Source: Cenococcum geophilum
Taxonomy: Eukaryota
Direction of reading: 5' to 3'
Assembly (NCBI GenBank): GCA_050273025.1
Contig: CP158635.1
Span: 7,440,001 to 7,504,000, forward strand
Length of the DNA stretch: 64,000 nt
Shown: in pieces, positions 9,905-64,000 of the stretch
Layout of the letters: each line of letters begins with the position of its first letter
Position numbering within the stretch: position 1 is the first letter of the stretch
Position numbers and translations under genes: made by a program
Notes under the pieces: model-generated
What the model was told of the DNA's origin: nothing
The model's input: the letters and a program-made list of their open reading frames with translations, nothing else
Database searches by the model: none

Positions 9905-10259
9905 CGGGAACTATATATATATTTAGCAGTGCTTATTTATATAGGTATTACTACTAAATCGTCTATTAAGGACTATTAGCGGAGTTTAGATATATATGGC
10001 TCCAAGTATATTATTAAAAAATATATAAGAAGCGTTAGATTTTAGCAACTTAATTATTACTTTTTATGCACTATACCTTAGCCTAAAAATGATTCTATAC
10101 CTTAAACTATATTTAATTAAGTTACTAAACTTACTAAGTACCTTTAACTTACTTATAGGAAGTTCTATAGCCCTAGCGCCTACCTTATAGTTAATAAAAT
10201 AATTAAACGCTTTATAGGCCGCGCCCCTAAAACTGTTAACATTCCTACTAAGCTAATAC

Positions 10260-10470
10260 TGTAATGTATCTTTTAGCACCTCTTTATAAGCTCCTCGGGC
10301 TTGCAGCCCTTCCCTCCTTATCGGTTCGTCTCTCTCTCTGTACTAGGCTATTGCCTACCCTTATTACCATATTGTCCTCTTCTACCGACTCTCCTTTTCT
10401 ACCGACTCTCCTTATGACTTATGCTCGGCTTGCCTGCTCCCTACCGTATACCTTAGCAATATGCCTTATA
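10260..10470. repeat. Solo LTR (211 bp)
   Basis: Termini tgtaa...ttata (RIP'd TG..CA) and exact TSD aatac (10255-10259, 10471-10475). It splits the piggyBac motif NIPTK|GFKI. Confidence 0.85.
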
Positions 10471-30200: not shown

Positions 30201-30429
30201 ACCTTATTTAAGGACCCTATAGGTGGGCACTAAGCGATTTTAGGCAACTACTACGTAAAACACTATGCTAAGACTTTATATAGGATTATATAATCAATTC
30301 GTCAATTCAATTCCAATTCGAACCTTCCAAATCAATTCAATTCTTTTAATTCGCCTAATTTGGAACGCCAAGCAATTCAATTCAATTCGAGCCTCTTTAG
30401 AAGACTTAAAAGATTTACTAGCACCCCTA
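27292..30429 (+). mobile_element. hAT-superfamily (Restless-like) DNA transposon, 3.1 kb
   Basis: 20-bp TIRs caggggtgccggcaaatctt / aagatttactagcaccccta and subterminal AATTCA repeats at both ends. The target duplication acatat(g/a) is imperfect. Confidence 0.93.
27677..30003 (+). pseudogene. hAT transposase (BED finger, DDE, dimerisation domain); likely intron 29247-29300
   Basis: CQICH..HLLKKH, IHVSMDI*TS, LDNALNN, RLQCASHIINL, TRWNSTF, PERVFS. Includes ORF 28703-28939. Confidence 0.9.
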
Positions 30430-37700: not shown

Positions 37701-37990
37701 AAGATTCACTATAAGGAAAGAAGAACTATCTAGGTAGGGACTATAGTCCTTTAAATACACAACCGTACTCCTAAGAATTCTCCTTATACGTAAAGTACGT
37801 CTTATATATAAGGTACGTAAGTCCCTCCCGTTCCTCTTATTTAATATATAGCACGTTATATAACCTTGGTTACCATTCCTTGTTATATAGCTCTATTGGT
37901 TCCATCCTAGACCGTGCCTTAATTAACTAACTAGCTGCTTTTGACTCCTCTCCTAGTAGTTATAACATCGTACTTAAAGCGTCTGTAACA

Positions 37991-39800
37991 CTTAGAGGAG
38001 TTATTAAATAGACTAGGAGCGACGGCTATAGGACCTTTAAAATTAGCTTCTTGCGCTTTATAGAGAGTAAGGCCTAGTAGCTAAGTAAGGTTAATAAGGC
38101 TATTATATTTTTATATCTATATTGCGGACGCATAGAGCAACTTAAAGCCCTTAGGTAGCTGCTATTTAAGAAAAAAGATATAATACCTATTATAAAAACC
38201 TTATTTAGTAAGAGTATAATAATATAAATAATACTATATCTTTTTCGGGCCTTAGTAATAATTATTATCTTACTACTTAATACAATTAGTATAAAGCAGA
38301 AGGTAAAAATTAAGGAGCTTTCTAAAATAAGGCTGGTTTATATATATACCAAGATAATATCCGCACATCTTTTACGGGAAATCCGTATTAGAGTATATAC
38401 CTATATTTTAATATCGCTAGAGCTACTAGTTAGTAAAAGGTTTTATAAAACTCTTACTAACCCTACCTTTTATATATATATTAACTTAGTAGTAATTAAT
38501 AAGGTATGCCTTATAGCTAATTAGGGGGGTTTATTCTGGAATTTATATATATAGCTATAGAAAGTGCGGTCATTATTAGAGCGGAAGCCTTAGTTTACTT
38601 ATACTATAACACTTAATAATATAACGTTTAAGATTGTTTAAGAGTTAGTAGGTTTTTAAAATAATATTAATATAGTGCGGATATTAATTAACCAGCCGGA
38701 TCTATTAATTATTAGAGAATACGTTAAGCGAGGAAATAATAAGTCCTTTAAAAGCTTATGCTTTATTATTAACCGCGTATAACGTTTCCCGCCCCAACGT
38801 CGCCATATAGCCAAAAAGACGTCGAGTGCTTGCGAACTTGTTTGCAAGCGCGGCGGGATCTAATATATGTACTCTTACACTGCACGTATACCGCTATATC
38901 CGCTAAGCAGAGAATCTAATATATACTAACTCCCTACTAGATCCTAAAGATAATTATCTTTCTTAATTTAAAGGACCTAATATTACTAGGCAGGGACTTA
39001 ATTTATTTATAGTTAGTATATTATAGATACTAAAAAGCGTAGGCTAAAAGAGCTGTTTAGCTTTATTATATATTATTAGCTATTATAGATAAAGATAGAC
39101 TATATAAAAAGTTTAGAAAGCCTAACTCAGAAATTTATATTTTATTCTCCTTTAACGCGCTTACCTATAGCGCTAATATTTCTAATATTAACTATATCGC
39201 GCAGTATTATATATATAAAGACAAGTTTATTAACATAATATAACAATAACTTAGATATGGTACTTATAGTAGTGATTAAATAGGTATAGCGATATTTCTA
39301 ATTAAGGATTAGTGTAAAGGTCTATATAAGAATATTACCAGGCTAGCTAAAAATCGCGGTTATACTAGTAAAGCCTTCTAATTTTAGCTAAGTTAACTTA
39401 GCTATAAATATTATATTGAGCAATAGGTGCTATAAGAGGATAGGGCTGCTAATTTTACTAGTGATATATCTTTAAGAGTATCCATATATAGTAATGCAGA
39501 TTTTAATCTATTTATATCTAATATAGGGTAAGAGCTTAGTCTAGGTGGAACATCCGTAGTTTTACCTACGGATATTCTACTAAAAAAGCTAGCGTAGCGT
39601 CTAAAGACTAAAGCTAAGAAAAGAGCAGCTCTCTTCTATTATATATATACTCTTATAAATAAGGAAAAGGGCTGCTTATAAAAGATTATATTAGAGAACT
39701 GTAAGGAACAGTCTCCATCTACTAGTAGCTAGGGTTATTACTCTAACTATAATCCTACTTTATGGGCTTTTAAAGAGTTTAATATCCGTAAGCTGTATAT
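37991..39800 (+). pseudogene. RecQ-like superfamily-2 helicase pseudogene; the 5' end probably lies left of 19001, split off by the Gypsy
   Basis: EQLKALR..KKDI..IKTLFSKS (motif I, AKT.FGKS); SLELL; LVVINKVCLIAN*G (DEVH..WG); P*FTYTITL (CTATL); helicase-C motifs ~38940-39280; Cys-cluster remnant ~39670-39750. Confidence 0.8.
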
Positions 39801-40491
39801 AGAGGGGATTCCAGGGGGGGTATACTAAAAGGCCTTTGCTATAAGCATAAAAAACTAGTTCTATAACTAAATAGAGAAGAAATATTAGTATACTATTTAG
39901 AATTTAACTTTAAGCTACGTTATATCTAATAAGTAAATTACTACCCTTTATAGCTGCACCTAGTATATAACTAGCTATAAGGCGTTTAAGAAAAACCTAC
40001 CTAATTAGAAGTATAATTAGCTTGGTAATAATCTAAATAAGTTTATTACCTTTATTTAAGCAGAGGTAAAAAAGGCAAATTAGGTAGAGAGCTAGCTATT
40101 AGCATTAGTAAGCAAATTAAAAGATAGCGTAGAGCGGATATTACTACGGCCTAGGGTAGCGGAGAGGCGTACAGTATTAATAGCTTTATGTCTATAAACA
40201 TAAGTAGCCTAGCTACCTTAATTAATATCTGCCGAAAATCCGCATATAGGGCTGCTAATACTATTACATTCTTAGCCTATGTTTAGTAGGAACGCATAGC
40301 TAGCTAGCTTAAACTTTAGCTATTAGAACACCTTTAGGCTAAGTATATTAACACCCTATAATGGATATTAGTCCTAGTAACGTAATAGTTGGGTCTAGTT
40401 TTTAATATAGGGCGGATATCTAGGATCTTAAAGCCAGGCTAGGTATTAATAGCCCTAGGGTAATAATTAGCGTTAGTTATTATTAGATATT

Positions 40492-41000
40492 AAGTATCGG
40501 CCTCTTAGATATTAGGGTCTATACTATAATAATAGATATTAACTCTCTACAGCTCTTAGATATCTAAGTTTATACTATAGTATTAGAAACTAGTCTCTAG
40601 GGTAGGCTAGGTATTATAGCTTATAAGGCAGCTCTGTATTGTAACCCTTAAAACAGTCTAGATATTAGAGCTTATAGCATATTATTAGATCTTAGCCCTT
40701 AAAGCAATCCGGATATTAAAGCTTATAGTATAGTATTAAATCCAAATCCTTAGGGCAGTCTAAGTATTAGAGCTTATAGTGCAATACTAAGTCTTAACTT
40801 TTAGATAAGCCTAAGGTTTAATATTCGCAATATAGCACTAGATCTCCAATTACGAAAAATTCTAAAGTTTAAAATCTATAGCGTAGCACTAGTTCCTAGG
40901 TAGTAGGAAATCTGGAAATTTAGAATTCATAATATAGTATTAGATCTCCACTTCTAGGAAACTTTAAGGCTTAGGGTTTATAGGCTAATACTATAAAGTA
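40492..41000 (+). repeat. Degenerate 51-bp (17-codon) tandem repeat, about 10 units
   Basis: Units start at 40594, 40645, 40696 and 40747, e.g. ccctta..cagtc..tattagagcttatag. More diverged units flank them. Confidence 0.75.
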
Positions 41001-43214
41001 TCTTATCTTTAATTAATTTAGAAAACGAATTATCCTAGGGCTAAGTTGCGCCTTAGAATAAGAAGTAGAAGAGTATAAGTATCTAGGCTCTTCTAGCGCT
41101 AATATATAATATAACCCCCTTAATATACTTAGTAAAATTTAAATACTTAGAAAATAGAAGGAAGTATAAATCCTTATAGATAGCGGAGCTACTAGTATAG
41201 GCTTTATTAATACAAACTATATAAAAACCTAACGCTTAAATTTAAAAAAACTTAATAAGCCCTAAGGCCTATAAGGCTTTAATAGTAAGCCTTTAATATA
41301 CGGCGAACTAACGCACTACGCTCTTATAAAGATGTGGATAGGCAAATACCTTAAATATATTTCCCTATTTATAACACCCTTAAAGCATTATAAGGTAATA
41401 CTTAGATATAGATAGCTAAAATAACATAACCCTTTAATTAGCTAGGTTAAAGAAATACTAAAATTCCGTACAACCTACTACTAAAGTTATTACTTAAAAT
41501 ACTACTTGCCCTATAAATATGCATATAACTATTTAAATTTAATATAATATAAATTACCCTTACTATAAACCTTAAACTAATATAATAAAGTTATAACTAC
41601 TAATCGCGGTAAAGAATGCGAAGATAATATATTAAAACCCCTTAAAATTCATATAATATAAGCCGCACCCTTTTATTTATTAATAAGAAAACAAGACTAT
41701 AAGATATTAAGAAGGCGTTGGAACTAAAGTAATATATTAACCCCTAACCTCTTATACCTAAAGAATATTACAATCTAATTAATTCCGTTTAAAAAATAAT
41801 TTATAGACTAACTACCCCCGTATTAAGATAAGTATAATTTTAAGATAGAATTTAAACCTAGTATAACGCTAGCGTTCGGCCTATTATACGGCATATTGTG
41901 AGAAAAGCTGCTTATAATATAATAATACCTTAAAGAGTGCCTAAAGAAAGGATTTATTTGCCCTAGTTAATTACTATTTACCTTACTTATACTATTTATT
42001 AAGAAACCTAAAGGAGGCTTAAGGTTTTATATTAATTATTAAGCCCTAAATATAATTATAATTTAAAAACGATATCTAATTCCTCTGCTTTAAGAAATAC
42101 TTAACTACTTATTAAAATTATAATACTTTATAAAGCTTAATATAGTTACTGCCTTTAATTAAATCCGTATTTATAAAGGAGATAAGAAGTATATAGCTTT
42201 CTGTATATAATAGGGACTCTTTAAATACCTAGTAATACTATTTAGTGTAAAGAACGGTCCTAGTATATTTTAGTAATACGTTAATAATACGCTTCGCAAA
42301 TTCCTTAATGTATTTATTACCGCGTATATTAATAATATTTTTATCTATTTATCTTCGCTTTCTAGGTATTAAAAGTATATCTAAATAGTCCTTAAATGCC
42401 TATAAGACGCAGTCTTATAATGTGATATTAAAAAATGCAAGTTTTACACGTCTAAAGTTATATACTTAGGCCTAATTATATCCTATAATAGAATTAAAAT
42501 AAACCCTAAGAAAATTGTAGCAATTATAAACTAGGAAAGTCCTAGTAGTATATAAAATATCTAAGGATTTCTAAGATTTATAAATTTCTATTATTAATTT
42601 ATTAATTACTTTTTAAAAATTATTTAGCTATTAGTAAACTTAATAAGGAAGAATATAAAATTTAAATAGACTACTAAATATAAATAAGCTTTTAATAACC
42701 CAAAATATTATTTTATAACTACTCTAATTCTTACCTACTTTAATCTAAACCTTAAATATATTATTAAAATAGACTTATCTAATTATATACTAGAAGGAGT
42801 TTTATTATAATATAATAAGAATAGTAAGCTGCGCCTAGTAGCCTTTCTCTCCCGGAAACTTACCCCTACTAAATTAAACTATAAAATATATAATAAGGAA
42901 CTGCTTATAATTATTAAATGCTTTAAATAATAGCGTCTAGAACTTAGAGAATTGTTATTTCTAATATGCGTATTAACGGACTATAAAAACCTATAGTACT
43001 TTATAACTATAAAGTAATTAATATAATACTAAATTTGTTAGGCTAAATACCTTTTATAATTTAACTTTAAGATTATATACTAACCTAGCAAACTTAACCA
43101 AAAGCTTAACTTATTAATATAATAATTATAAAATTTATTTATAAACCCCTCTAACAAACGGATTATAACTTAATTATAAATTCTACTCCCCCCTAAACGC
43201 TTTAAAAAACTATA

Positions 43215-44331
43215 AAAATGTCTATTCAAAGCGAAGTCACGCCTTCCCTCCGAACAGCAACATCAATATCTATTACAATTAGCCTTTTGGCTTTTCGCTT
43301 TGAAATAAGGCTTATTTGATAGAGATTTTGTTGTTTATTCGTTTTATAGCCTCAATAATACTATGCCATACGGCGCTGTGCTGTCGTCGCGATAAAACGT
43401 CTTACCCCTTGGAGAATCGCGAACCCATAAACAGCTTCGCGATTTATTATGAATAGCCTTGTAATTTATTACGAACAGCTTCGCGATTTCCATAAGCTAT
43501 TAATAAGTAGTCTTTCCTGATAATTTTTCCCATAGGGTTTTTTAACAGGTTTTGAATTGACGCTTTCTAGCTTCCTACGTCGTCGTCGTTAATAGCCTTC
43601 GATATTTACCTACCCGAACGGTTTTTAACGATACTCTATATAAAGAGACGACATATATTCCTACTTCTATGGTTATTGGGCGTAGGCCTTATACCGCTAG
43701 GTTTTGGCGGTACGTAAGTAATTATCTACCACTGCATAGCAGGCTGAGGCGAGATTACCTAAACGGTCTTCGATACCCCACGGGCGCAAAGAGATGATAT
43801 ATTCTTACTTCTATATTGGTTGTTGGGCGCAGGCCTCGTACCACTACCTTCTGGCGGTACGCGTTGTTTGGGGTAATGAGTGTGTAATCATCTACCGCTG
43901 CTTGAGATAGTAGGGAACCTATGCAATACAGCAGGCTGAGATAATTACCCTCTCCTCGGGCCTACACCCCCCAATATAATACATTATTTAGAATATATCT
44001 CTATCTCTACAAGCAAGTAAATAGATAAAAATGTCTATTTAAAGCGAAGTTACGCCTTCCCTCCAAACAGCAACATTAATATCTATTACAATCAGCCTTT
44101 CGGCTTTTCGCTTTCCCACCCTCCACCCTATAGATAGATTTTGCAGCCTCTTAGGCTTGCGGTAGGCCCGAGTGGGGCAATGAGTGTGTAATCATCTACC
44201 GCTGCTTGAGACAGTAGGGAACCTATGCAATACAGCAGGCTGAGATGATTACCCTCTCCTCGGGCCTACACCCCCCAATACAATACATTATTTAGAATAT
44301 ATCTCTATCTCTGCGAGCAAGTGAATAGATA
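43215..44331. mobile_element. Non-coding 1117-bp insertion with split direct repeats (A1..B1-A2..B2), Ngaro/PAT-like architecture
   Basis: A1 43215-43301 = A2 44028-44114; B1 43869-44027 = B2 44173-44331. The host Gypsy frame rejoins across it. Confidence 0.75.
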
Positions 44332-46629: not shown

Positions 46630-49600
46630 CTATAGCATTAAAAAGAAAATATAATTTCGTTTTAGTATAATCTACTAAAGAATGCTAAAGGGGCAAGAGG
46701 AAATAGTAGTTTGTATAGCGCTTACTAATTTTAATAAATTATAATTACTGGTTGCTTAGAGGACTCTAAGTAGTTTCCTAAAGCTTAATTTACTAAACTA
46801 TACTTTTATAAACGTGTCTCTAATATATTATCTGCAAGTTATTACTAATATAGAAATTAACACTATGCCAAGGGTCGTTAAAGCGCATGGCCTATCTCTA
46901 TAAATTCCTATTATCTAGATGGCCTAGCACTAAAGCACCGTTTATTTTCTAGTTAGTATATCTCTAAATATCTAACCGACCTCTTCTGTTGCTTTAGTAT
47001 ATAAAAGAATATAAGTATACCTAGCTGCACTGCTAATACATATAGGAGGTTAAAAGGTCGTAAGAAGCTTACACCCTATATAGTAAATCTTTATACGTAA
47101 GAGTAATACCTATTATTAGGAATACTAATAACCCTAGCCCCTCTCCGCTAGCTTACTTTATACTTATACCTTAGAACAATCTAGTAAAACTACGCTAGAT
47201 TCCAAGCCTTAAAAGCGGCGTTTCTTTAGAATATAAACTCTAGCAGTCTGGGCCAATTATATAATATTTTATACATGTTTGTTAGATAAAGAGCTCTAAT
47301 TAATTAGGGCAAGATACAGCCATCTATTACTAAAAAGCCACTTATATTCTAAGCTGTGCTATATTAATAACGCTCTATAGAGAAGTCTCGGCTAATTTTC
47401 AGGGTCTATATAATCCCCACGCCTATTTTAACTTCTCCCTTAATTAATTTACATTTATATCTTCCTAATCCTCTTCCCGAAAAGGTCCATATAACTACTA
47501 TTTATAAATATTCTTTAAGCATACTAGGAAGAGCAAAAGTAAGTTGGGATAGGGTAAGTTCGTTTTCTTTATAAGCTATAGAATCCTAAACTATATTATT
47601 TAGTTGGCAAAGAGCCCCTTTTTATAGTTATTAGACGCAAAGACTTTCTATTACACAATTATTATATTATTACTCTAGAATTAACTAGACGTTTATTACT
47701 ATTACTAATTCTTAGTCCTATAGATATCCCGTATAAATACCCAAACTTATCTATAATAGATAAATTAACAAGATAACTAGAGATACAGGAAAATTAATAC
47801 ATTAATAGTTTAGTATGCTAGAGAATTAGATGCAAACGCTTTATTAAACTCTATTTACCGGATATAGACTCTATCTATTAGAGCGTATATATTATTATTT
47901 TTTATCTTATTTACTCCCTTTAGAGTAGGGAATATTATAGTTCTGGTGTTATCCCGAAGGTCTAAGTAAAATAAAGAATATAAAGAGATATATATTATAG
48001 CATTATATTTACAATTATTTAGAAACAGCTAACTAAGATAAGGAAGATGCAATAATACTAGTTAAGAGGGGGTTGGTAGTGTATACTATACGGGACTAGA
48101 AATTAGGAATAGCGTTACTTTAAGGGTCTTACTAGGGAAGTAGGTTTAAAGGGCTATTCTAAAGTACGCTAGCAATAATACTAAGGTCGGAGCATATTAT
48201 ATAATGCTTATCTTTACCGCTAGGTAACCCTAACACGCTAGGCTCTGTTGGCTATTGCTAAACCCAGTATATAGTATACGTGGAATTAGTCTACAGATCC
48301 GTAGGTACTAATAGATTAGTCTTGCACTATTGTTTATAGGTAGACCTTAGTTAGCTAGAGATAGGGTCGGGAAACTAATTCTAACGTATTATAGAAATAC
48401 TACCATTATTAATTTGATAACATCTATTATTATTAAAATTTTAAGTAGTTAATAGTTTCCCTTTCTGGTTACCGCTAGTACCGTTAAATATCCACTATAG
48501 GACGTCTACTAATACTTTACTATTACTTGGCTAAGATATACTAAATACATAGACTATTCTACCTACTTTTGGCTTACCTAGCTAGGTTTACAGTAGTATA
48601 ATATATTTATTTTTAAGGTACTTTATAGCTATATAAGCTCCTAGTAATATATTAAGTCGCGGAAATATTACAGTTTAGTTAGCGGTTCTCTATATTAGAG
48701 TATATAAAAGATCTAAGCCATTTACCCTTATCCTTTCTAAAGCTAAAGGTGGTAAAAGATAAGTCATTATATTATCGTTAAAGCCCGGATCACTGCAAGA
48801 GACATATCCGCGAGGATATCCATTACTTCCTATAAAACTCCGTTAGAAACTACCGTAAGTTGTTTATTCTAAGCGTGTATAAGCCCTAGAAGAGCAGTAG
48901 GAAAAAGGTAGAAGATTAAATATATAATAGTGGACAAAGTATAAGAATTAGTAAATATAAATTAGTTTAAGGCTCGCAGCGTATCTAAAGATATATCTGT
49001 TCTCACTAAGGTATATTACGCTTATATAACCATTTAGTAAGGATCTAACTCTATTACTTTAGGCAGAATAGTTAAGAGCAATACTAAACCGTACATATTC
49101 TATTTCCTCCTTTATTCTAATAATATAGCTTACTTTAAAGCTTAATATACACCAAGTAGGCACTTAAAATAATGGCTACTAATTTCCCCGCACGTAGACC
49201 GATTTATATACTCTTTTATTTATATAGATATAATTAAAGCATTATATAAAAAGGACTAGCATTAATAAATATTAAACTTATAAAGGTAATTGCCTTATAA
49301 CTTATCCCGCTCTATATTACTAAAGGCTAAAAAGACAGAGTAATTATAACTCTATTGCGACTCTTACGGGATTTAATATATATACTCTTATATACCTATA
49401 ACCAAGCCACTAAAACTAAAGATAGACTTTTAATATACTGTTAACGAGAGGTATAGTGGTGCCACTAGTACTAAATATTAAATATTTATTAATTGGATAT
49501 CCGTGCACTAATTATAAAAAAAGAATAAGGACTCTATCTATTAAATATAGCTCTAAGAGTCTCTATATATATATAAGAAAGGTATAGGAAACAAGAACGA

Positions 49601-50109
49601 GAAGGGGGTAGGGGGATGGCAATAAAAATAAGGGGTAGGTAACTAAGTCAATAACTAAATCAATAGGAGATTTCTAAGTCGATAATAAGATAACCTAATT
49701 TAGGTCAACAATATTAAACGTTTAATATAAATGCGATATGTTTAATACTAAAATATATTAGTTATTAAAAGAGAATATATAAAAATAGCCAGTTTTATAG
49801 ATTTTACTAAGTATTAGAGATATATACTATATTATACGTAATATAGGGACGATATATAGTACCCGGCTAAGATATAAGGTATCTATTTTAGGTAATATCT
49901 AGGCGTGTATTTCGGCTAAGACCTTAGTTATACGCGGTTCGCACCTTATATTTATATAGAGGCTTAATAAGAATTTAGTATTAAATATTAATATACCATT
50001 AAAGAGATTAACTAACGATTATTAAATTACTATAACAATCTACTACCTTACTATTTTAGACACAGCGAAGAGTCTCCTTAATTTCTTAGAATATTAAGCA
50101 TACACGGTA

Positions 50110-52095
50110 TTAGCGACTTAGTTAATTAAGGTACGAGCACGGTAAGAGGGACGCGCAAGCCTATATAATTAGATTGTCTATAAACGAAGATCTAAAGCTA
50201 AAGAAAGGAAAGGAGAAAAAGAGTAGCGCCGCTTAATGTTTTATAAGATCTTCGCGTTACGTAACCGCAATATACAGCAATTTATAGCAACTTGCTAGTA
50301 CGGAGGACTGTAAAGTTCTACTAACTAAGTTCTACTAAGTTCTACCAAGTTTTGCTATCGCTGTAATATATAGTTATTAGATTTAGAATACTAGTATTAG
50401 CTTAATCTTAGGGTTATAGATAGACTCTAATATATTTAGTAATCTTATTAGACTGAAGCTAATTTAGACTAGACTAGACTAGAGCTAGAGTACTAACCTT
50501 TATAGGTAACCGTTAGTCCTATTTAAGTTTAGCGTTTATAGAGCTCTAGGAGCTTTAAAGTAGATTTAACCCCTAAATCTATTACTAAATATATCCGAGT
50601 ATAAAGAATAGCTTATAACACAAAATAAGTAGGTAACTTAAAGTTAGTTCCCTAAGTTCTAATAAATCTAACTATTATACTAAAGAGATTATTATCCTAG
50701 GGTTATAGAAATCCGCTTAGCTAAAGCTTAAGCTTATAAAACCAACTCTTAGTACTAGCTACTATTAGTTCAATTTATACTCTCTATTATTTATAGGTAG
50801 GCTAAAAAACGTAAGAAATTAATACAAAAATCTATTATAGCACTAACTCTTTATAATATAGTAGTATTTCTTCTTCTTCTTTAATATTTATTAGTAGACT
50901 AAAAAAACGTAAGAAATTAATCTAAGAAGCTCTTTTATAGCACTAACTCTTTATAATAAGGTAGTACTTATTCTCCTAGTACTAACGCGGAGCTACGATC
51001 TTCATTTACTTAATTAAATACGTATTTAATAAGTCGCTTCCATTAAAAAGTCCTTAATAATAAGATTATAATATACATTTTTATCTCTTCTTTTAGTGGC
51101 ATCTTTATACTTTATAGCTCCGATTAGCGCCTTAAATATTATTTTTAGAAGGGTTCTAAGTTAATATCTTATCTAAATTTTATTTTATTTCAAAAGCCTA
51201 CTAAAAGGGGTTAAACTTACGCGCCCGGGTAGCTACCTAGCTAAAAGACTATATAACTTACGTAGTACTATATACATTAAGTAACTATAAAAAATAATAT
51301 ATTAGTTATTATTAAAACTATTCCTACCCCTTAGTCTATGTGGCTGTTAAGAATTTTTATCCTACTAAAATTATTTCAATATACGCGGGCTAACTATTTT
51401 AAGCTAATTAGTAAGGGGTTAGTTATAAAGACGAACTACTAATTATTCTACATATAAAGGATGGATTAGTATAGAGCCAGATTCTAAAGGGTTTTAAAGA
51501 AAAAATAGGAAAAACTTTAAAAGAGCGTGGGCTTTAGAGCTGGTACTAAAGGCTTCTATAAAAGTATTATATTTTTAAAAGGTAGATAGTAAGTAAAGAT
51601 AGAATAAAATCCTTTCTTATTCATTAATTAACACTTAAAAGTACTCCTCTAGATAGAAGAAGAGTAAAGAGGTAGGGTAGATATAGTATACTATATATAG
51701 TATACTATAGAACAGCAATATATAACTAGGCACGCCTTATATACTCTAACTAAAACTTACTAAATAATAAGATAACTAAATTAATTATATACATAGAATA
51801 TATAGCATATAGTACTACGTTAAAAGTTTAGGTCGCCTACCTAATTCCCCGTTAAAAACTACTAAACTTACTATTATAGCACTGGCAGAAAACGGTAGAA
51901 CTTAGTTAGCAGAACTTAGTAGAACTTTATAGTTACGTAACTGGGGGACTATATAGAAGAACCCTACCTTAACTAGCGCTACTCTCCTTCTCCTTTCCTT
52001 TCTCTAGTTTTAGATCCTTGTTTATAGACAATTCAATTATATAGGCTTACGCGTCCCTCTTGCCGTACTTATACCTCGATTAACTAAGTTGCTAA
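50110..52095. repeat. Two related LTR-like fragments in inverted orientation
   Basis: 50110-50229 is the reverse complement of 51976-52095; 50310-50368 resembles the reverse complement of 51872-51932. Confidence 0.65.
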
Positions 52096-52799
52096 CTATA
52101 TATACTCGCAAATCTCTCTTTTAATTTTTACAATAAGTATAATAGTACTAGGGCATGTTACCTGCTAAATTCTACCAAATTCTACGCTACTATTAGCTCG
52201 CTTACTACTAGCGCCTCAGCGACCCTCTTAAGATATTTATTTATACTACCCCCTTCTTCTTCTTCTTTTTCTCCTTAGCTTAGTATCCTTATATAGTAGC
52301 AATCTATAAGCTTTAGTTTAGAGGCATTTATATAAGCCCGTTATAATAAGAGAACCTACCTCCCTATATAATAATTATATACTTACTCTCCTACTTAGCA
52401 ACAGGGATTAATATATTAAATTTTTTATCTTTAAACTTGGCTTTTTTCTTATAAATCGCTGTTTTTATAAGCACTCCCTATGATTATATAATGGCGAGAT
52501 ATCCTCTACCTTATAAATTCCCTTATATTACCGTAATAATTACTAACTAGCCTATAAGGCATGGAATAGCTTTAGCCATCCTTAGTATAAGGCATATATA
52601 TCTACAATTTTATATTTATATATTTCGTTTAGGGGCTTATACTAATTTAATCTTATATTATAAATAGCTTTATACTTCGTTATCTTTAATATCTATAATA
52701 CGATACCTTTTAGTAATTATGGCATGCGGTATAAGACAGGCTAATCTAGGTAATTTTTAAAGAAAGTCGTCCTACTACTATTAATTGTGGTAAAGAAAA

Positions 52800-55700
52800 C
52801 ATTGCTTAGATACCCTACCTATAGAAGCTCTACTGCAGATACAGTTTTTAATTTCTTAAAGAATTCCAAAGCGCTATTAGTCTATCGGTTTAAATAAATA
52901 GATGTTAAAGAGCCTATATTTAAAAACCAGATAAGGGCTTAATAAGCTTAATTAACATTAAACTAATGGCTCTAATATTGTTGGACTTATAAGGGGATAT
53001 CACGTAGCTACGGTTCGTAGATAGTATGATGATTGTTGTTCTTATTTTTGTATATTCTTAAAGAAAGGGGTGAGGGCGAGGAACCTTAGGTTCCTCGCTA
53101 CGGTAGTACCGCGGCGACACGTGACGGCAACTTGCCTCACGTGACGGCAATTTGCCTTATATGGCGGCAATTTGCCCTATTTCTAACACTAGTAACTCTT
53201 CTTTTTTATAGTTACTATTTATATATATATAAACAGACAGGATGCAATAATACCAGATAGTATATAATAAGACTAAACACTATGCGATAATGCAGTAGTT
53301 AGCAAAGATGGGTAGGCCGCTAAGGCGCTAGCAGTAAGCAAGCTAATGGCGATTTTCTATCCCGGGGATGGAAAATCCTAATTAGCTAGATTAAGTTAGG
53401 GTCTGTAGAATATTATACTCTAAAAAGTCTTGGTAAGAGAATCTAACTAATTAGATAACTTTAACCGCCGGTTAAAGTTCCTGGATATTTTAAGACCTTA
53501 CGTGACTAAGAAATTTCTGGGGACTCCCTTTTAACCCAACCTTTAACTTATACACATAGAGTATTCGTGTTAATAAACGTCTCTAGTGCCTTGTTTAGGT
53601 TTGCCTTTATTATTATATCTGCCGGGTTATCTTAGCCATTAATCCATTAAATCTTAAAGAGTTCTTAACGCTTGTAGGATTGCTGAAGTGCTATAATATC
53701 GATTATAAGGCGCTTTTTTTTTGTGGTACCGAGCTTAACTAAATACTTATAGAGGGAATATAAGTTGGTGTATATGATTATAGGGATAACGGAAAGTTTG
53801 AGTCGATCTGTAATTATCTTTAGGGTAGTTCCAATTGCAATTGCTATATTAACTCCGCTAACCATTCTATATATCTCTGACGCTAAAATACTTCGGGTGA
53901 CGCGCTTACTCTTAGTTGAGCTCTAATAGATAAGATTGCCATAGATTGTGAAGTTATTCTCTTTAGTAAATTCATTTACAATAATAATCTTATATTCTAA
54001 CTAGGAGCTAAAATCTTTATTATTTATAAATGATTTATTAACAAATACAAAGAGCTTAGCGGTAGGAAGATTAATAGGTACGTAGAGTAGTCCCTAATTA
54101 AGATAGTTTATTTACCAGAAAAGACGCTTATTTAGGGTAAGGATATTATCCTTAGTTGGTTTCTAGTATTAGGCGGCAATAGAGAAATTAAATAAAGCCT
54201 TAGGTTAATAGATAGAAGTAATATAAGCTTTGCAAGCGCGTTACTCTATATATCCTTACTTTAGAGAATTAGTGTTAATAACGTTAATCTTTTTACCTTA
54301 ACCCTTCTGGCGCAGAGTAATAGAATCCTTATTTAGGGAGAGGATGCATCCGTTAAAGAGTAATGGTGTTATTAAACTAAGCTTTTCCTTTAGCTTTGCT
54401 ATAAGATTTGCCTTTACTAGCTCGTCTTCTTTAAGAGCTAAGAATTGGTCGTCTCCTAAGATAATTATATTGTTAGTTTATATGCCGACAATTCCAAATA
54501 GAGTTCCCGTAGTTGTAATGAGGAAGTAGGGATTAAATATAGAAGTAGTTATTAAAAGCTTTTCTTTGTGGTGCTTGCTATAGGTAGCCTACTAATAAGT
54601 TCCTGCTTTTGTAATTCTATATAGTGGCTTAAGTACAACTATAATCGTATCTTTGGGATATTGGTGGCGAATTTGCTTTAGAAGGTATGCTAGTATTAAG
54701 CGCTAAAGGCGCGTCTCTAATTGGGTATAGGCCTAAGTAATATCTTATAAATAAACTGCCATTCTGTTCTTTATTAAGGAGGGAGCTAGTATAACAATGA
54801 CTTGCTGACTAGCTTATTATATTATAGAAGATTGCGTAAGAATTACCTCCTTACTATTATTGTTATAACCTTAGATAATAAGCCTTAATTTCTTAAATAG
54901 GGTATTAGTAGCTTTGCCCTTAATCTTATTAACTATTTTTAACTTAAAGATGCAAATTCTATTAAACTTAGTAGGGTTATACTTCTTAAATTTAAAGACT
55001 CCTCTTGTAATAAGACCGTTAATCTCCTACTTATTAGATGCTTGGAAAGGAGTCCCTGGAGTTATAATATAACCTTCCTTTTAAAGCTGTTTTGCGAGCT
55101 TAAAGTTAGCCTTCTCTTTAGCTATTATAAAGGCTATTAATAACTCAACTCTATTCTTAATGGCAGCAATAAATTGCTTTTTGAAATTAATAAGGTGTTG
55201 GCGATTTTATAATCCCTTTAGGCGACCTCTACTATATTGTGGTTGCGGCACGTCTACTATAATTATATTAGGATTATAGTTGCCTTCTAGGGTACGTTAG
55301 TTGTAGTTCTCCTCTAGGGTATTTTCTAGGGTATCTTTTAGGGTATCCTATAAAGGCTTGGAACTGTTATTTTTATAGTAGGGCCTAATAACGGTTAAAT
55401 GGAATTAAGTGGGTCTATAGGGCATCTAAAGAGTGCAAGTTTAACTATTAGTTGTAATGAGTTTATGTAGGCCTAACTATCCTCCCTTTTTATGCTATAC
55501 CCGTACTTTAGATTGGAGTGGCAGATTAAGCGTAGTTGAGGTGTTTAGGCCATTTCTTATTTCTAGTGCGTTATTAACCTGGCGCGTAGCGTATAGATAT
55601 TATACCTCCTTTGTTGCTTTATAAATAGCCTTAGCTCGTTATATAATAGAGGGAGATAGTGGAGAATTGTTAGTTATTTAAGGGTAGGCGCTAAAGACTA

Positions 55701-58700
55701 GTAACGTGGGTACGAGCTTATCTGGGCCAGTGGAATCATTGATGGCCTTAACAGCTATTTATAAGATGATTTCTTTGCTAGCGTCCTCTAGTTCTAAAGA
55801 AATAATCTTATATACTCGGCGTAATGGTATGTGGTATCGCTCTACTTTTCTAATACTATTATATGCCTTAATAGGGACTTCCTTAACCTTAATTGCCATT
55901 GCTTTTGCCTATTATTGAAACTCCGTAGATAAGAAGTTCTTTCCTATATTGTGAATGATTTAATTAGGGGGTCCTAGGTAAATATTGATTTAGTATAACC
56001 AAAGGGTATCCTATGCGTTTTTAGCTAATATATCCCTTAAGAAATATATGGCTTAGAAGGAGGTTAATAAGTTAATAGCTTAGAGGACTGGCTTGCCGTT
56101 AAGATATATAACATTAATAATAATATAGAAGTTAAAGTTGTAGTTATCTTTAAGGGTGAACTTAAATTGGCTAGGGGACTTCTGGTTTATTTAGCAGTAA
56201 TAGTAGTACTTTATAAGATGCTTAATTGCCTTAACCTTGACTTTATAACCTGCTTGTTAAAGAACCCTAAGCAGTTAGTAAACGGATGGGTGGCCAAAAT
56301 GATGGTGTAGTTGGCGTAATTCTGACTTAGTTAAGTGGCTTTAAGTAATACTCTTTTCTAGTTAATAAAGGAGTAACTAGGGGTAACCCTACTTGCGCAT
56401 GACGGGTATCTAATTGTCTCCCTAAATAAGTATATTCTTAAGGTTGTTAAGCCTAATACCTAACTTATTTATATCTTTAATGTAAAATAGAAACGGAGTG
56501 TTTGTAGGAATAATGTAAAAACTGATGTACCCTAAGGGGGTTTAAACCTTAATTGTGCTGAGAGAGATTATAGTACCTTTGCTAAAACGAATTATATGCT
56601 GGCCTGCCGTTAAATAGTTAATCTAAACAGAGCTATTAAGCTACTAAAGGGCTTAAACTTGAGGTTCTCCTGCTATAGATACTTCTGCGGCTCTAGTATC
56701 TGGTATAATACTATAGAAGACGTTCGCCGAGTATTTGTTGTTAAAGGAAAACGCGGAGCTCTCTTTTGGCTTATTAAAGATATCTAACTTTGTAATAGAA
56801 TGGAGTGTAGATTGGTTATTAAGAATAGTAATGGTTTATATACCATTTACCTTACTATACTTAGTAAAGTATTAGTTAAGTAAGTAGTCCTCAATTTCTA
56901 TATCTATAAGGAGCTGTTTGGTCTTATTAACCTTACCCTTAAGGTCTTTTACGCCTTTATATTGAACTAGGAAGCTTTAGAAGTAGGCCGTAGTAACCTT
57001 GCAATTTCTAACGTTTCTTATACTCTAATGGAACTTATTATATACCTCTTTTTACTTATTAAGGGAGTGTCTAGTTAACTAGTAATTTGGCTTCTTATAA
57101 ATATAGCACTTCTTTTAGTGATTACTTTGAAATAAACCTCCATAAGGACCTTTATAATTACTTTGTGGTCGACATTAATTATACCCTTTGCCGTATTCCC
57201 TACTACGGCCACTATATATTCGATTAGTCTAGTTATGATTATGTTGGTTGGGAACGCTTAGTTGGGTAGGGCTTTTGGTATAGAGCTGTTAAGATTCTTG
57301 TATTTGTATTGCAGTACCTACAGCGGAGCGTAGCTTGGCATATACTCCTTTAAATGTGTTTATAGGTTTATATAGCGCCAAGTTGCACTTAGGAACGCTA
57401 TAGCATGCTAAAATAACCTAGTCCCTTAGACTGTTCTTATTTTAGTAGGTTTTAGTAAGACTATATTAGATTTTCTAGAGTTTATTAAAGAGTAGTTAAA
57501 GACACTCTAGGTAAGTCGTTATTGGGTTAGAAGCGATAACTCTTTAGAATATAGTCTCCCGCTATTTGGACATATAGAGTTAGCGGTTTTTATTGGTTTT
57601 AAAGTAGGCTCTAGTAAGCTAAAGCATTATATTAAAGCTATAGTTTTTACCTATGATATAGTCGTAATAGAACGTTACCGCCCGTCCCTTTAATATAATA
57701 GAGAAAGCATAATAGAACTAATGGCGTTGAATTCTAACCTTGTTGTAGCAGTTATAAAAGACCTGTAGTTTTACTCCGAGTATATTATATAATTCTCCTC
57801 TAAACTTCTTCTCTTCGTCCAAATATACCTTTATTAGATTCGTGACTTCTTAAGATAGAGGCTTATTAGTTGGCTGGGATAGAGGAGTTAGAGGTAGTGG
57901 AGGTAGAGGAAGAGCACCTCTAGGTGGGAGAGTACCTCTAGGTGGGAGAGTAGCGTTCTAGGGGTTTTATTCCGAATTAAAGTTGCCTTCCGAAGAATAT
58001 AGGTTAGTTTTAGGTTTCCATAGTTAACGTATAATCTTAGCTTTCGTCTATACTAGTTCTTCTATACTAGTAAGAACGGCGTAAATATTACTGGTAATTG
58101 GGTTACCGTCCTTAGTAACGTATACCCTATTCCTTTAGAGGGAGTTTTAAAAATCCTAAATAATATTAACATTGCTAAGTGCCTAGGTGTCGGCGGTCCA
58201 TCCTATAAAATCCTCCCTAAAGTATTCCCATAACTGTAAATCGGCGTAATAGCTATCTTAGTAGAATAGAATATAGTATAGGAGAAAGCTGTTAACTTAT
58301 TTTGCGGTACAGGTTGTTATATTAAAGGTAAATGCGTCCTAATCTTTATTAATAAGTTTCGCGTATATAGCTACCCCTAGTAGTAAGGAGTCTCTCTAGT
58401 TATTTAGGGTGGCTATAGTTATATCTTTAGAGGAAGGGAATATTGGTAGTATAGGGATTATTATTTAGTACGCGTTCGTGACGTATATTTGCGATTATAG
58501 GGCTTAGGACCAGTTCTAGCCTTAAATCGCGAAGACTTATAAAGCGTGTTGTTCTATATAATGGACGCAAGAATCTATAATCTGGGGAAGGCTTAGGACT
58601 AGTTCTAGCCTTTAGATCCTTAGATTCGTGGAAGAGTTCTATTTAAGGTTTAGGACTAGTTCTAACCTTAAAAGACAGCTTCCCTTAGCACGAGTAGCAC

Positions 58701-59450
58701 TGGTATAGTAGCTTGTCTCTTTTTGGTGAAAACCTAGCTGTTCTATAGTATAACAGTAAAGTTAACCACTGATTAGTGTTGGACTCATAAGGGGATATCA
58801 CGTAGCTACGGTTCGTAGATAGTATGATGATTGTTGTTCTTATTTTTATATATTCTTAAAGAAAGGGGTAAGGGCGAGGAACCTTAGGTTCCTCGCTACG
58901 GTAGTGCCGTGGCAACACGTGACGGCAACTTGCCTTACGTGACGGCAATTTGCCTTATATGGCGGCAATTTGCCCTATTCCCAACAAATATCATCTGCTT
59001 TATTAAGGCTCCCTTATAATATACTATCGCCAATATTTACTTCTTTAGGTTTAGTTTAAGCTTTAGAGTATTATATAGAAACGTATTAAGCCTAATATCT
59101 CTTATTTATAAGATAAGAACGTTTTTTATACTTAGAAAACCGTACTAAATACCTAACTTATTATAAATAAAATAAACTCTAGTTAAAACCTAGGGAACTT
59201 ATAAGTTAAAAAATATAAAGGGCCTTTAAAACTTCTTTACAAATTGTAGCCAGCTTGTAATCTCTAAAGCTAATTAATAGGCTTGCTTAAATTTCTCTTA
59301 GCGTTATATTAATATATAAATACTTACAAATTAAGTAAATATCCTAGAAAATAAAAGCTTCTTTAAGAGAAATAATATTTAGGTATTTTACTAGTACAAG
59401 CATAATCTAGTTATAACTTTAGTGCATTATAGGTCTCTATTTAATTATAA
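52800..59450 (-). pseudogene. Protein-kinase-like pseudogene split by Copia 2
   Basis: ISLKEAFIF..ITLREI*AS..YKLATICKEVLKAL (~59200-59380). NIGDSIL..ADDIRAISLMLIKLIKP reads through the TSD junction once the Copia is removed. Confidence 0.65.
52979..58986 (-). mobile_element. Full-length Ty1/Copia-type LTR retrotransposon 2 (6.0 kb); RIP-inactivated
   Basis: 210-bp LTRs at 52979-53188 and 58777-58986; TSD aatat. Integrase LHHHFGHP and YLGPP motifs; RNase H piece in ORF 53665-53865. Confidence 0.95.
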
Positions 59451-59899
59451 CTACTATAAATTTAGAGTTATTTTTATATATAATTATATACGGGCCTACC
59501 TAGTCTTTATTAAGTATCTTACGGTACTTTAGAGAAGAGGATTTATTCTATAAAATTAAGGCCTTTAGCTAGGGCAAAGCTAGAAACAAACTTCCTAAGT
59601 TAACTACGATAGGAAGTTTAGGTGGAATATTTCCCCTAGTAAGAAACGATTGTTTTAGTGATCTAGGTTAATAGGTCTTATTAATTAAAAACCTAGGGAA
59701 TAATATGGCTCTGCTACCTAAAGCTATACTTTATTATATATCTGTAAATAAAGTATAAAGATAGGAGATTTTATAATTAATTATGCTATCTAATTATAGA
59801 ATATAGATATAAATAACTACACCTACCGCTGTCGTTTTAACGGTGGCTACGCAGCCTTATAATCTTTACGCTTACGGTGTTAAAGCCTAGTTATATTAT

Positions 59900-61750
59900 A
59901 TTTAGAATAAAAAAAAGCTCTAGAAATATAATGGTCTGCAGTCCTAAACTAAGCATTAAGCCTCTATTGTTTTATAAACCACTCTATGCTATATAGGAAG
60001 CCGCCAAGTTTTTAGTAGTTTAGCTCGTCTATTTTTAGGAAAAAAGTAATTATATTGCGTAGGTGTCTAATATAGAAAACAATCTATTTACTATATTGTT
60101 GGTACCATAAGTAGATGTCTTCTTCTCCTTTAAAAATAGCTAAAAGGCCTCTTTCGCTAGTTATCTTACTAGTAAACTCTAAGGAAAATAAAAATAGTTT
60201 AGTTAGGGCATATATAATAGTATAACTATTATTTTGGTAATATATAACTCCTTCGCATCTATAAAACCCATTTTTATAATATAGTAAGCAGTCTAACTCT
60301 AAATAGAACGAAGATATAAGCAGCGCTAAGACTACTCCTTCCTATTTAGACTTTCCTAATAATTAGAATTAAACTACTCTTTATAGGTTATCTATTTACG
60401 TAATATTATTAAGCCTAGGTACTTATCCCACTTTAATATTTAATCGGAAGTAATCTTCCCTTAAATTTTTATTAAGACTATTATATATACCTTACCATTG
60501 TTTCTAAATATCTATATAGGAAGAAAGTAAGTTATAGATACTTTTTACCCCCTGGGGTAGGAATTAGCATAGGAATTAGGACGTTGTATTTAGCTAAAGA
60601 TCTAATATTGTAGTCCCTAGAGAAAGGACCATATTAGGAGATTGTTTAGGCTAGATATACTTACTTTCCCATAAACCAATTCTAATTGGATTGTTATATA
60701 GTAGCGTACCGTCTAAGTAAGGGCTATTCTTTAGATCTACTTAGGGAAACAAACTTATATAATTAGCTTAAATATATTACTAAGCGTTAAATCTTATATT
60801 AAAGCGGCTAAGGTAGCTCTTACCTTATAAAAGGATTAGTATAAGCTTTAAGTATTCTTAGAAATACTTACGCTTCCTATATATTAATTTCTTTTTCCTG
60901 CTTATATCCTTTACCTTAATTAGGATTCTATATTTAATAAAGAAGTAAAAGAAGGGAATAGTATACCAAAACCCATTTTATACGCATTATAATTTGCGAA
61001 GAAGTACGCCTAATTAGTTAAAATTAAAGTAGCGATAACTACTACCTTTTTGCCTGATAGCTGTAGGTTTTTAAACATTTGTTAATTACTAAATGTCTCC
61101 TTTAGCAAAGATTCTAGAGTAATTGCATTATAGTAGCCGTTAGACCTCCAAGCCTTAATAAGCTTTTTAATGTCGCCAAAAATGGATTTCTTTTCCTTTT
61201 ACTCTGCAAAAAATCTCCTTATAATAGATTTAAAGTTCTTATTATACTATATAACGTCCTATAAGCAGAGACCTATACTAAAAACAATTAATCCTCCTAG
61301 TAGTTTAGTTATTATCCTACTTAAATTAAGTATATCTCATTCTTACTAGAGCTTATACCTATAGTTAAATTAAAGAAATCTTATAATTTATATTTGGAAC
61401 CTAGAGTCTTTTAAGATAGGTAGCTAAGAAGAGCTAATAGGATTAACGGCGAGTATCCCTAGAAAGGTAAATTTCTTTTATAAGCTGCTCCTTTAATAGA
61501 CAAAAGCAGGCTAGAGGTAAGAGCTTCTTATTAATTAGAAAAATAATAATTAAAGAGAATATTACCTAGATATAGGAATTCGTACTAATAGTTCGCATCG
61601 CTTATTAATTATAAGCTTTGTTACTTATAGAGAATACTAAAATAAGCCTCGGCCGAATATTTTTAGGTAGGTTTTAAAAAATATCTAAAGCGGTCTATTA
61701 TACAAGCTAGCCAAGGAGTAGGTCTATACTATTAAAGTTATTTATAAAAA
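59900..61750 (-). pseudogene. Patatin-like phospholipase (PLP) pseudogene with introns
   Basis: LLSIKGAA; DFFNLTIGISS (GxSxG); GGLIVF; AYFFANYN; RATLAAL (RATSAAP); YLDGTLLYNNPIRIGLWES..VLSLGT; YFRLN; FYLELD; KLGGF. Confidence 0.85.
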
Positions 61751-62269
61751 TTATAAGAACAGTATACTGCGGTAGAATAATATAGGTAAGGGCTACGTTA
61801 AGCGCTATTTAAGTATTTACGCATAGCTATATAAGTGGATACGTTGTTATTTTATAGTAAGTTAATAGTGTCTGCTTTAGCAGAAGTATAAGTTTAGTAT
61901 TTCCATTGGTAAAGAATATAGGGTGTTTTGCGTGTATTATTGTATTATCTATATATATATTTGCTATACCTCCGGATTAATTTTTTTTAGTATTATTATA
62001 GGGGAAAAGATAACGTAACGCTGTGTTTTTATTTCCACCCATTTTGCTATAGAAAAAGACTATTAATAATATCTATTAAGATAGTTTCGGAAGTTTATCT
62101 ACTAAGTACCAGAAATAACTAATATCGCTAATTATAAGGCTATTAGAGCCGGCAATCTATAGCTACGAGATATAATTATAGAGAGATATACTTATTATAG
62201 ATAAAGAGAAAACTAGAATATTTAATATATATATAGTAGGGATAGTAGTTTTGGGTAAAAATAGAAACT

Positions 62270-62622
62270 ACTTATAGTAACAGCATCCTTAATAGGGCCT
62301 CTTACCCTCTAAAGAAAACCCCAACAGGCTATAGATAATTTAGATAATAATTACTATAATTTCTATAATGGACAAGGATATTACTATAGTTTTACTAAAG
62401 TCCGTCTAGAAAATCTAGCCGTTAAAGGGCTAGAAGTTTGCCCTACTTAAACCGTAAATAACAACTATATATAGTATCTTATCGATATATTTTATATAGA
62501 GGGCTATAATAATCTTAATTTAAAGAACCGGGTAAAAGCCTTAATTTATAATAAAGATATTAATAATATCTTATAGGCGTTAGAGATAACAATAGAAGAA
62601 TTTATGCAGTATATTAATATAC
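62270..62622 (+). pseudogene. N-terminus of a DUF3723-like protein, interrupted by Copia 3
   Basis: YSFTKVRLENL...TVNNNYI*YLIDIFYIEGYNNLNLKNRVKALI de-RIPs to G.AKV.L..L...R.VD...V.RL..IF..EGC..LDPEN.V.ALI, which matches my recollection of the DUF3723 N-terminal pattern. Confidence 0.6.
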
Positions 62623-64000
62623 TGTTGGTTATATAAGGTAATATTACGTAGCTACGGTTCGTAGATAGTATAATAATTGTTATTATATATATTCATCTTG
62701 CTTAAGGAAGGGCGAGGAGCTTAGGGCTCCTTGCTACGCTAATACCGCGGCGATATATAACGGCAACTTGCCTCGCATGACGGCAACTTACCTATATTCC
62801 CAACACTAGCAACTCTTCTTTTATGGTTGCCATCTATATATATATACCTCTCGACAAGCGTAATAAATATTAATCCTTTTTACTTACCATTGCCATTATA
62901 ATATAAGTCTCGCTGTCCTAAAATTTGCCTCTTAGTATATAGTGCTTTTTTACTTAGGAGTCGCAGGTAGATATCTTGTTAGGAGGGCCGCTAAGGCGCT
63001 AGTAGTAAGCGAGCTAATAGCGATTTTCTATCCCGGGGATAGAAAATCCTAATTAGCTAATTTAAGTTAGGGTTTGCAGAATATTATACTCCTACTCCCT
63101 TTTAACCTAACCTTTAACTTATATATATAGAGTATTTATATTAATAAACGTCTCTAGTGCCTTATTTAGGATCGCCTTCGTTATTACATCTACTAGGTTA
63201 TCTTAGCCGTTAATCTATTAAATCTTAAGGAGTTCTTAACGCTTATAGGATTGCTAAAGTGCTATAATATCAATTATAAGGCGCTTCTCCTTTATAGTAC
63301 TAAGCTTAACTAAATACTTATAGAGGGATTATAAGTTGGTATATACAATTATAGGGATAATAAGAAGTTTAAGTCGATCTATAATTATTTTTAGGGTAGT
63401 TCTAATTACAATTGCTATATTAACTCCGCTAACTATTTTATATATCTTTAACACTAGAACGCTTTAAGTAATATACTTATTCTTAGTTAAGCTCTAATAG
63501 ATAAGGTTACCGTAGATTATAAAGTTATTCTCTCTAGTAAATTCGTTTATAATAATAATCTTATATCTTAACTAAGAGCTAAAATCTTTATTATTTATAA
63601 ACGATCTATTAACAAATATAAAGAGCTTAGCGGTGGGAAGATTAATAGGCACGTAGAGTAATCCCTAATTAAGGTGGTTTATTTACTAGAAAAGACGCTT
63701 ATTTAGGGTAAGGATATTATCCTTAGTTAGTTCCTAGTGTTAAGCCGCAATAAAGAGATTAAATAAAGCCTTAGGTTAATAAATAGAAGTAATATAAGCT
63801 TCGCAAGCACGTTGCTCTACATATCCTTGCTTTAGAGAATTAACGTTAATAATATTAATCTTCTTACCTTAACCCTTCTAGCGTAAAGCAATGGAATCCT
63901 TATTTAGGGAGAGAATATATTTATTAAAGAGTAATAGTATTATTAAATTAAGCTTTTCTTTTAGCTTTGCTATAAGATTTGCCTTTACTAGCTTATCTTC
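62623..64000 (-). mobile_element. Copia 3: 3' LTR 62623-62805 plus RH/RT end, sister of Copia 2; runs off the window
   Basis: 183-bp tgttgg...ccaaca LTR similar to 52979-53188; 63090-64000 is collinear with ~53520-54430. Confidence 0.92.

Follow-up and report, generated by a model that had tools for sequence, protein, structure and literature searches.

The region from 52,800 to 62,622 of a 64,000-nucleotide window of the Cenococcum geophilum genome is very probably the auxiliary-gene core, consisting of a predicted pseudokinase, a patatin-like phospholipase (PLP) and a DUF3723 gene, of a multi-copy Starship, of which an internal fragment is left here in derelict form. The window, by which we mean the whole stretch of DNA analysed (G000:C1:7440001-7504000), lies on contig C1 of genome G000, a 178.4-Mb assembly of seven contigs (C1-C7). 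The composite index for repeat-induced point mutation (RIP) ranged from 0.49 to 1.71 across all 32 two-kb bins, so that the whole window is RIP-mutated, and four stop-free frames of at least 100 aa were found in it, with none within 52,800-62,622. An earlier sequence-only reading had described a minus-strand PLP and kinase-like pair divergent from a DUF3723-like gene, all RIP-mutated, and homologue alignments and the RIP index agree with this gene order and state (Table 1).

Identification of the three genes

The PLP and kinase-like calls rest on homologues, as Pfam gave no match in the window's own frames. We identified L106, a metagenome contig of 2213 bp, as an unmutated relative (GC content 41.5%, RIP index -0.31) that is 81-85% identical to the genomic copies, with 1.7-2.3% transversions. 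A search with L106 retrieved four Ascomycete PF01734 proteins among 1754 candidates. The best of these, P0037 (982 aa; PF01734 at E 1e-23), was aligned by tblastn to the minus strand of the window at 62,177-61,404 (E 2e-23), 61,506-60,983 (E 6e-11) and 60,719-59,865 (E 1e-45), and the reversed window used as a control gave a single match at E 0.52. The patatin motifs GxSxG and DGG are present in L106 as GTSSG and DGG; in the window, mutated GISS and DGT forms remain, and the first motif was lost with a 764-bp deletion near 61,410 that removed approximately residues 266-500 and with them the beginning of the patatin domain. The deleted stretch is kept in all four of the sister copies described below. 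When the mutated reading of the PLP was used in a word-indexed search of proteins, none of 2119 candidates matched.

L106 carries a PLP-kinase pair in the same order as the genomic block, and this order is also found in two RIP-mutated metagenome copies, L107 and L108. Given the unmutated state of L106, the element may have a living relative.

The DUF3723 gene lies head-to-head with the PLP and is interrupted at 62,622 by a long terminal repeat (LTR) element, its remainder resuming beyond the window from 69,511. Pfam searches of the window's own frames gave no match in nine readings and then in three more, and a genome search with PF12520, in which 85 of 174 candidates were scored, did not list this copy. 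The call, for which a profile search had been suggested, holds through the copy on contig C4 (88% identical to the window), which matches PF12520 positions 1-81 (E 2e-8) and maps to the plus strand of the window from approximately 62,505 onward, and through PF12520 matches downstream of the block in four of four sister copies.

Complete sister copies on two contigs

We found four further genomic copies of the window sequence 59,000-62,600, each 87-91% identical to it (five of five candidates scored). Identity among the five block copies is 87-100%, and all five carry stop codons. Two of them, on contigs C4 and C5, lie within complete elements of 215 kb and 192 kb, respectively. At the 5' junction, similarity between these elements begins at C5:10171073 and C4:19671883, directly after a TTAC-N7-A sequence; at the 3' junction it ends near C5:10363202 and C4:19456736, where TTAC-N7-A comes next in C4 and TTAT-N7-A in C5. 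Between the junctions, at both of which similarity stops, the two copies are collinear; over approximately 157 kb of alignment they differ by 8.2% transitions and approximately 0.09% transversions, totals that leave out a first chain block of 507 bp lying beyond the element. A DUF3435 captain is the first gene at the 5' end and points inward: in C5, PF11917 matches above cut-off (E 2e-12 and 6e-10) lie at most 3.6 kb from the 5' end, and homologous tblastn matches occur in C4. Because each of these two sister copies has a captain at its 5' end and is bounded on both sides by TTAC(N7)A-type repeats, the block belongs to a true Starship.

We also examined 15 captain-family loci. The 5' terminus was visible in 10, and TTAC-N7-A preceded it in all 10, with unrelated flanks; two of the other five are internal truncated starts, one begins inside and two gave no alignment. 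The target site, TTAC(N7)A, is of the Hephaestus type. The termini of the element are weakly complementary, at approximately 12 of 15 bases counted by eye and without a null model, and may form a short imperfect inverted repeat. The auxiliary genes of the complete element include DUF3723, PLP, and HET and TPR domains, the latter two located in C5 at a distance of approximately 6-8 kb from the kinase gene, with no NACHT or NB-ARC match. The HET/TPR segment is shared by C5 and C4 and absent from the window, the C7 copy and L107, and we read it as a probable later cargo capture.

A second captain 5' region, 80-83% identical and without a terminus, was observed inside the element approximately 140 kb from the C5 start in four copies; this internal region may be what is left of a Starship, nested or in tandem, that then moved as one unit. 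A match of 85-87% between C4:19681003-19686506 and C1:7635105-7704000 lies outside the C4 5' junction and was taken as a common transposon.

These results bear on whether the genes could instead be core host genes in a repeat-rich region. Intact patatin genes do exist in the genome, but all five block copies and all 15 of the kinase-like matches described below carry stops, and the intact patatin loci that we fetched gave no tblastn match to the patatin region of the window PLP, which was matched by one RIP-mutated, DUF3723-linked locus alone (L079). None of the five PLP copies was among the 60 matches listed when the genome was searched with the patatin family. The multi-copy, junction-bounded context of the block refutes such a host-gene origin, whose probability is negligible; that context also speaks against syntenic core loci, and the accessory-gene assignment made by the sequence-only reading was borne out by the two complete Starships. 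L079 (G000:C2:15355920-15359205) is itself a second RIP-mutated head-to-head DUF3723/PLP pair, of a more distant family with 35-43% protein identity.

Several observations weigh against reading the block as the core of a transposed Starship fragment. None of 15 RIP-mutated readings of the PLP and kinase-like genes, taken from C4, C7 and the window, gave a match when scanned directly with Pfam. The window copy has neither end, so that its own arrival by transposition is inferred rather than shown, and the comparison was made within one genome, in which no empty site was seen for the element. The C5 3' repeat is TTAT rather than TTAC, an imperfect repeat that is compatible with RIP. The assignment to the Hephaestus family is a putative one, drawn from the target site. 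In addition, the ferric reductase (FRE) that had been proposed as a search target was found in no copy, with none of 13 genome matches inside the element.

The window copy is a fragment with neither end

The window copy is assigned to the Starship because it is collinear with the complete copies. Its backbone within the window totals approximately 8.6 kb (13% of the window), all to the right of 46,630, and the whole fragment comprises approximately 30.5 kb of backbone spread over 129 kb, from window position 46,630 to 175,594 (G000:C1:7615594). Counted in the orientation of the window, it corresponds to positions 86.6-131.9 kb of the C5 element and lacks, in C5 coordinates, approximately 60 kb at the captain end and approximately 87 kb at the far end. 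A match to C5 at 43,211-44,032 was dropped from the backbone as a nested repeat absent from C4. The DUF7492 cargo gene relic in the backbone (Table 1) was recognized in L107 (PF24320, E 2e-74), which is collinear with the window at 87%. We also observed 130-bp inverted repeats (85% complementary; window 50110-52095) flanking the backbone block at 50,588-51,902.

Table 1. Coordinates of features in the window and of the truncated captain region in other copies of the element (LTR, long terminal repeat; TSD, target-site duplication; LINE, long interspersed nuclear element; TIR, terminal inverted repeat)
Feature	Position	Strand	Basis or remark
Starship fragment, part in window	46630..62622	.	Collinear chain against C4 and C5, 79-93% identity
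Backbone blocks	46630-46833, 46933-49120, 49126-49264, 49323-49486, 49710-50108, 50588-51902, 52470-52978, 58987-62622
DUF7492 cargo gene relic (coordinates approximate)	48160..48870	-	Mapped from metagenome copy L107
Kinase-like gene, 3' part of C-lobe exon (3' limit approximate)	52800..52978	-	Split off by LTR element
LTR retrotransposon in kinase-like gene	52979..58986	.	210-bp LTRs, TSD AATAT
Kinase-like gene, 5' exons	58987..59727	-	P0001 alignment, family profile
PLP relic	59865..62177	-	tblastn with P0037 (PF01734); approximately 980 aa in intact relatives
DUF3723 gene, 5' part (start approximate)	62360..62622	+	PF12520 in C4 copy, collinearity; head-to-head with PLP
Second LTR retrotransposon, same family, in DUF3723 gene	62623..64000, ends at 69,509 beyond window	.	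TSD TATAC
DDE_Tnp_1_7 transposase relic	~9840-10295
LTR element enclosing other elements	19,002-37,991
LINE-like element	22979-31676		Inside the 19,002-37,991 LTR element; label by eye
hAT-like transposon	27290-30433		Nested in LINE-like element; label by eye
DNA element with 48-bp TIR	32239-34708		Inside the 19,002-37,991 LTR element
Helicase-like stretch	37995-40540		Dispersed high-copy repeat
Truncated internal captain 5' region	G000:C5:10310973-10312440; C4:19498773-19499791; C6:12075317; C7:4844065

By homology, the captain end of the window copy lies to the right, on the minus strand. The sequence-only reading had seen no captain in the window, and we found none there; the captain remnant that was to be sought in the flanks was likewise not found, as blastn against C4 and C5 detected neither captain nor terminus in C1:7390001-7704000 (-50 to +264 kb), and tblastn with four captain loci found no captain at the locus in a search up to C1:7644000. 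The captain searches are lower bounds, with 100 of 342 candidates scored in one and 40 of 203 in the second. This leaves some room for a copy that is still complete and split by very large nested insertions, with its captain more than 90 kb past the last matching base, and insertions have already stretched 30.5 kb of backbone to 129 kb. However, no collinear match was found for 88 kb to the right of the last or 96 kb to the left of the first, the largest internal gap is 23 kb, and the nearest PF11917 matches on C1, among the 150 of 165 listed, lie at positions 5.15 and 8.80 Mb, so that we regard a complete but split copy as very unlikely.

An alternative to end loss is that the fragment never transposed whole, and that a piece of a Starship was brought here by segmental duplication or by ectopic recombination between repeats. 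Each breakpoint adjoins a repeat, which on the left is the remnant of an LTR element and on the right a 12-bp tandem array, and the segments adjoining them had no match on C1 near the locus (in one search, 40 of 1026 candidates were scored). On the other hand, other partial copies of the same element exist, and the window copy is the most diverged, which gives ample time for the loss of its ends: it differs from the four other copies by 0.70-0.86% transversions, with substitutions in both directions, compared with 0.02% between C4 and C5. By this measure, the window copy is apparently the oldest of the five PLP-bearing copies. We consider the duplication scenario unlikely, and the sequence would originate from a Starship either way. 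Arrays similar to that at the right breakpoint (C1:7615594) were also observed just beyond the C4 3' end.

The stretch from 1 to 46,600 comprises LTR elements, a DDE_Tnp_1_7 transposase and a LINE-like element into which a hAT-like insert is nested (the latter two labels were assigned by eye). The sequence-only reading had suggested that much of the window, perhaps including a helicase, was one dead Starship. The entire window is indeed RIP-mutated, and a different Starship could in principle underlie its left part; however, positions 1-46,600 resolve into nested repeats and match the complete copies through these only, and the helicase-like stretch has no match in C4 or C5 and is a separate dispersed repeat with 79 matches from 40 of 517 candidates scored. 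Helicase_C was found just under cut-off in two other copies of this repeat (E 1-2e-4), and motifs of the helicase-like protein suggest the RecQ type. The helicase belongs to an unrelated high-copy repeat and not to the Starship backbone, and the wider version of the claim is most improbable, the collinear part being limited to the backbone given above.

Both LTR elements that interrupt the gene block are absent from the C4 sister copy, which shows their empty sites. The two LTRs of the element at 52,979-58,986 are identical at 201 of 210 positions, and all nine differences are transitions. 'Copia', the label given to both elements by the sequence-only reading, is a putative one.

For the internal Starship fragment, which is the reading that we prefer, we propose the following course of events. 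A captain would have excised the whole element and integrated it at TTAC(N7)A sites, as described for such captains (PMC10104507), and the element would then have multiplied in the genome at a time without RIP, together with its nested transposons and a HET/TPR gene that it had captured. In subsequent sexual cycles, RIP would have mutated the copies; each copy shows independent C-to-T/G-to-A mutation. The window copy would have lost both ends, and transposons amounting to approximately 98 kb, the two LTR elements among them, would have inserted into it later. Today it is an inactive fossil.

A predicted pseudokinase near DUF3723

We next describe the third gene of the block. Direct Pfam scans of the X-read frames of 52,800-62,622 gave no match, and a sequence search of PDB with the mutated kinase reading was also negative. 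The mutated reading from C7 retrieved 36 proteins at E <= 0.001, the best with 79% identity. A Pkinase match at E <= 0.05 was obtained in 21 of the 30 homologues scanned, three of them above cut-off. The homologue P0001 aligns to the window at 59,727-59,230 (63%, E 2e-56), and a profile of the family matches 59,673-59,212 (E 8e-29). The C-lobe exon resumes at 52,976 across the LTR insertion, and reads without interruption over the empty site in C7, L107 and L108. An Atlas model of one family member resembles PAK/STE20-type kinases (TM 0.66-0.71) and, by its features, also Pan3 and slowpoke-binding proteins.

In active protein kinases, the catalytic-loop aspartate lies in the HRD motif and a second aspartate in the DFG motif. 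In the genomic copies the former is absent, and the corresponding positions read [Y/H]-G/S-F/L; this loss is not due to RIP, because RIP cannot turn aspartate into phenylalanine or leucine. In addition, NIG or NVG replaces DFG. Among the six unmutated homologues printed, five have NIG in place of DFG and the sixth ends before the motif; the homologue P0008 keeps HGD. The kinase-like gene is, judging from these motifs, a probable pseudokinase that lacks both catalytic aspartates.

We then searched the genome with P0001 and found 15 matches (19 of 19 candidates scored) of 26-76% identity, all RIP-mutated with stops. For 11 of them, one of the 65 merged DUF3723 loci is no more than 8 kb away, compared with an expectation of 0.6% per match, although the matches are not independent and form approximately three copy families. 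The window's own kinase match is, by homology, a twelfth near DUF3723, and the remaining matches are 73 kb (two) and 176 kb (one) away. Seven of the 11 lie in tandem approximately 1.0 kb downstream of DUF3723, have 37-43% identity and apparently represent a different family. This proximity suggests that the kinase-like gene is a further auxiliary gene. In other fungi, a check of locus-tag adjacency found no genome common to the named kinase-like and PLP homologues.

Our literature search found no paper joining 'Starship' and 'pseudokinase', although the family may already appear in supplements or in the tables of starfish and Starbase. No such kinase-like gene was found in passages of one paper on Starships, DUF3723, kinases and auxiliary genes, and the word 'kinase' is absent from the main text of PMC9156397. 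We tentatively propose, while leaning slightly towards doubt, that an Ascomycete pseudokinase with a PAK/STE20-like fold may be an unrecognized fifth Starship auxiliary gene, travelling with DUF3723 (and here also with PLP) across divergent element families in a signalling or cell-death module, and that the genome may also record a burst in which Starships of more than 150 kb reached at least five copies before RIP. Should this pseudokinase prove to recur as an auxiliary gene, it would provide a further marker for finding Starships and a testable lead on the function of the DUF3723/PLP module.

Starship relics across the genome and comparison with known systems

Searches of the whole genome gave at least 165 PF11917 matches (100 of 342 candidates scored) and at least 88 PF12520 matches (85 of 174 candidates scored), nearly all with stops; the captain matches and the 65 merged DUF3723 loci are thus dead with few exceptions. 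In several families, captain and DUF3723 lie on opposite strands at a fixed spacing of approximately 11 kb or approximately 31 kb. Captain matches with no stop or one stop were observed at L072 (G000:C3:7969165-7970527) and at G000:C6:8404499-8405095, and are possibly intact recombinase genes among captains otherwise killed by RIP. Starship relics of this kind are invisible to annotation based on open reading frames, and their contributions to large fungal genomes may be undercounted. Two papers on fungal genomes expanded by transposable elements (TEs) name Starships only in passing or in references in the passages searched (PMC12910237, PMC13041039).

The closest known system is HEPHAESTUS and its family. 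TTAC(N7)A is the target of HEPHAESTUS (PMC10104507), and TTAC is conserved across the Hephaestus family (PMC11162782). The element described here shares with them a DUF3435 captain as first gene, the TTAC(N7)A target, possibly a short terminal inverted repeat, and inactivation by RIP when multi-copy (PMC10104507, PMC11162782), RIP of duplicated Starships having been reported previously (PMC10104507). However, median lengths given for the Hephaestus family are 27-97 kb (PMC11162782, PMC10104507), whereas our element is larger, a single genome contains at least five long copies of it, none of them alive, and it carries PLP, DUF3723, the predicted pseudokinase and HET/TPR. Starships are described as low-copy (PMC11162782), with 0-5 per genome (PMC9156397). 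The duplication end to end of an element of more than 150 kb with its nested transposons, shortly before RIP, contrasts with this picture.

Derelict, RIP-mutated Starships are an already described class (PMC9156397, PMC11162782). In the 'degraded Starships' or Starship-like regions of PMC9156397 and the 'derelict' copies of PMC11162782, DUF3723 and PLP also persist without a captain, and adjacent locus tags in Voyager (mp102_11356 and mp102_11357) suggest the same DUF3723/PLP neighbour pair (PMC9156397). The definition of degraded Starships in PMC9156397 requires at least three conserved-gene matches, whereas the window copy has two (PLP and DUF3723). What we add to this class is a fully bounded element of 192-215 kb, a near-identical duplicate pair and the pseudokinase lead.

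The element also resembles Tangerine (bioRxiv 10.1101/2025.11.25.690456) and other TE-carrying Starships (PMC13004909), which combine a captain, DUF3723, PLP and an NLR gene with much length made up of RIP-affected nested TEs; nested transposons are carried along by other Starships as well (PMC13004909). Tangerine differs in that it was described from one shared position in the X. parietina genomes examined, most of its associated genes being intact, whereas in our case every copy and every gene is dead and they are dispersed. Finally, Logos of Aspergillus fumigatus (bioRxiv 10.1101/2024.06.28.601215) contains a gene annotated as a serine/threonine kinase together with DUF3723 and freB. That gene is treated there as ordinary cargo.

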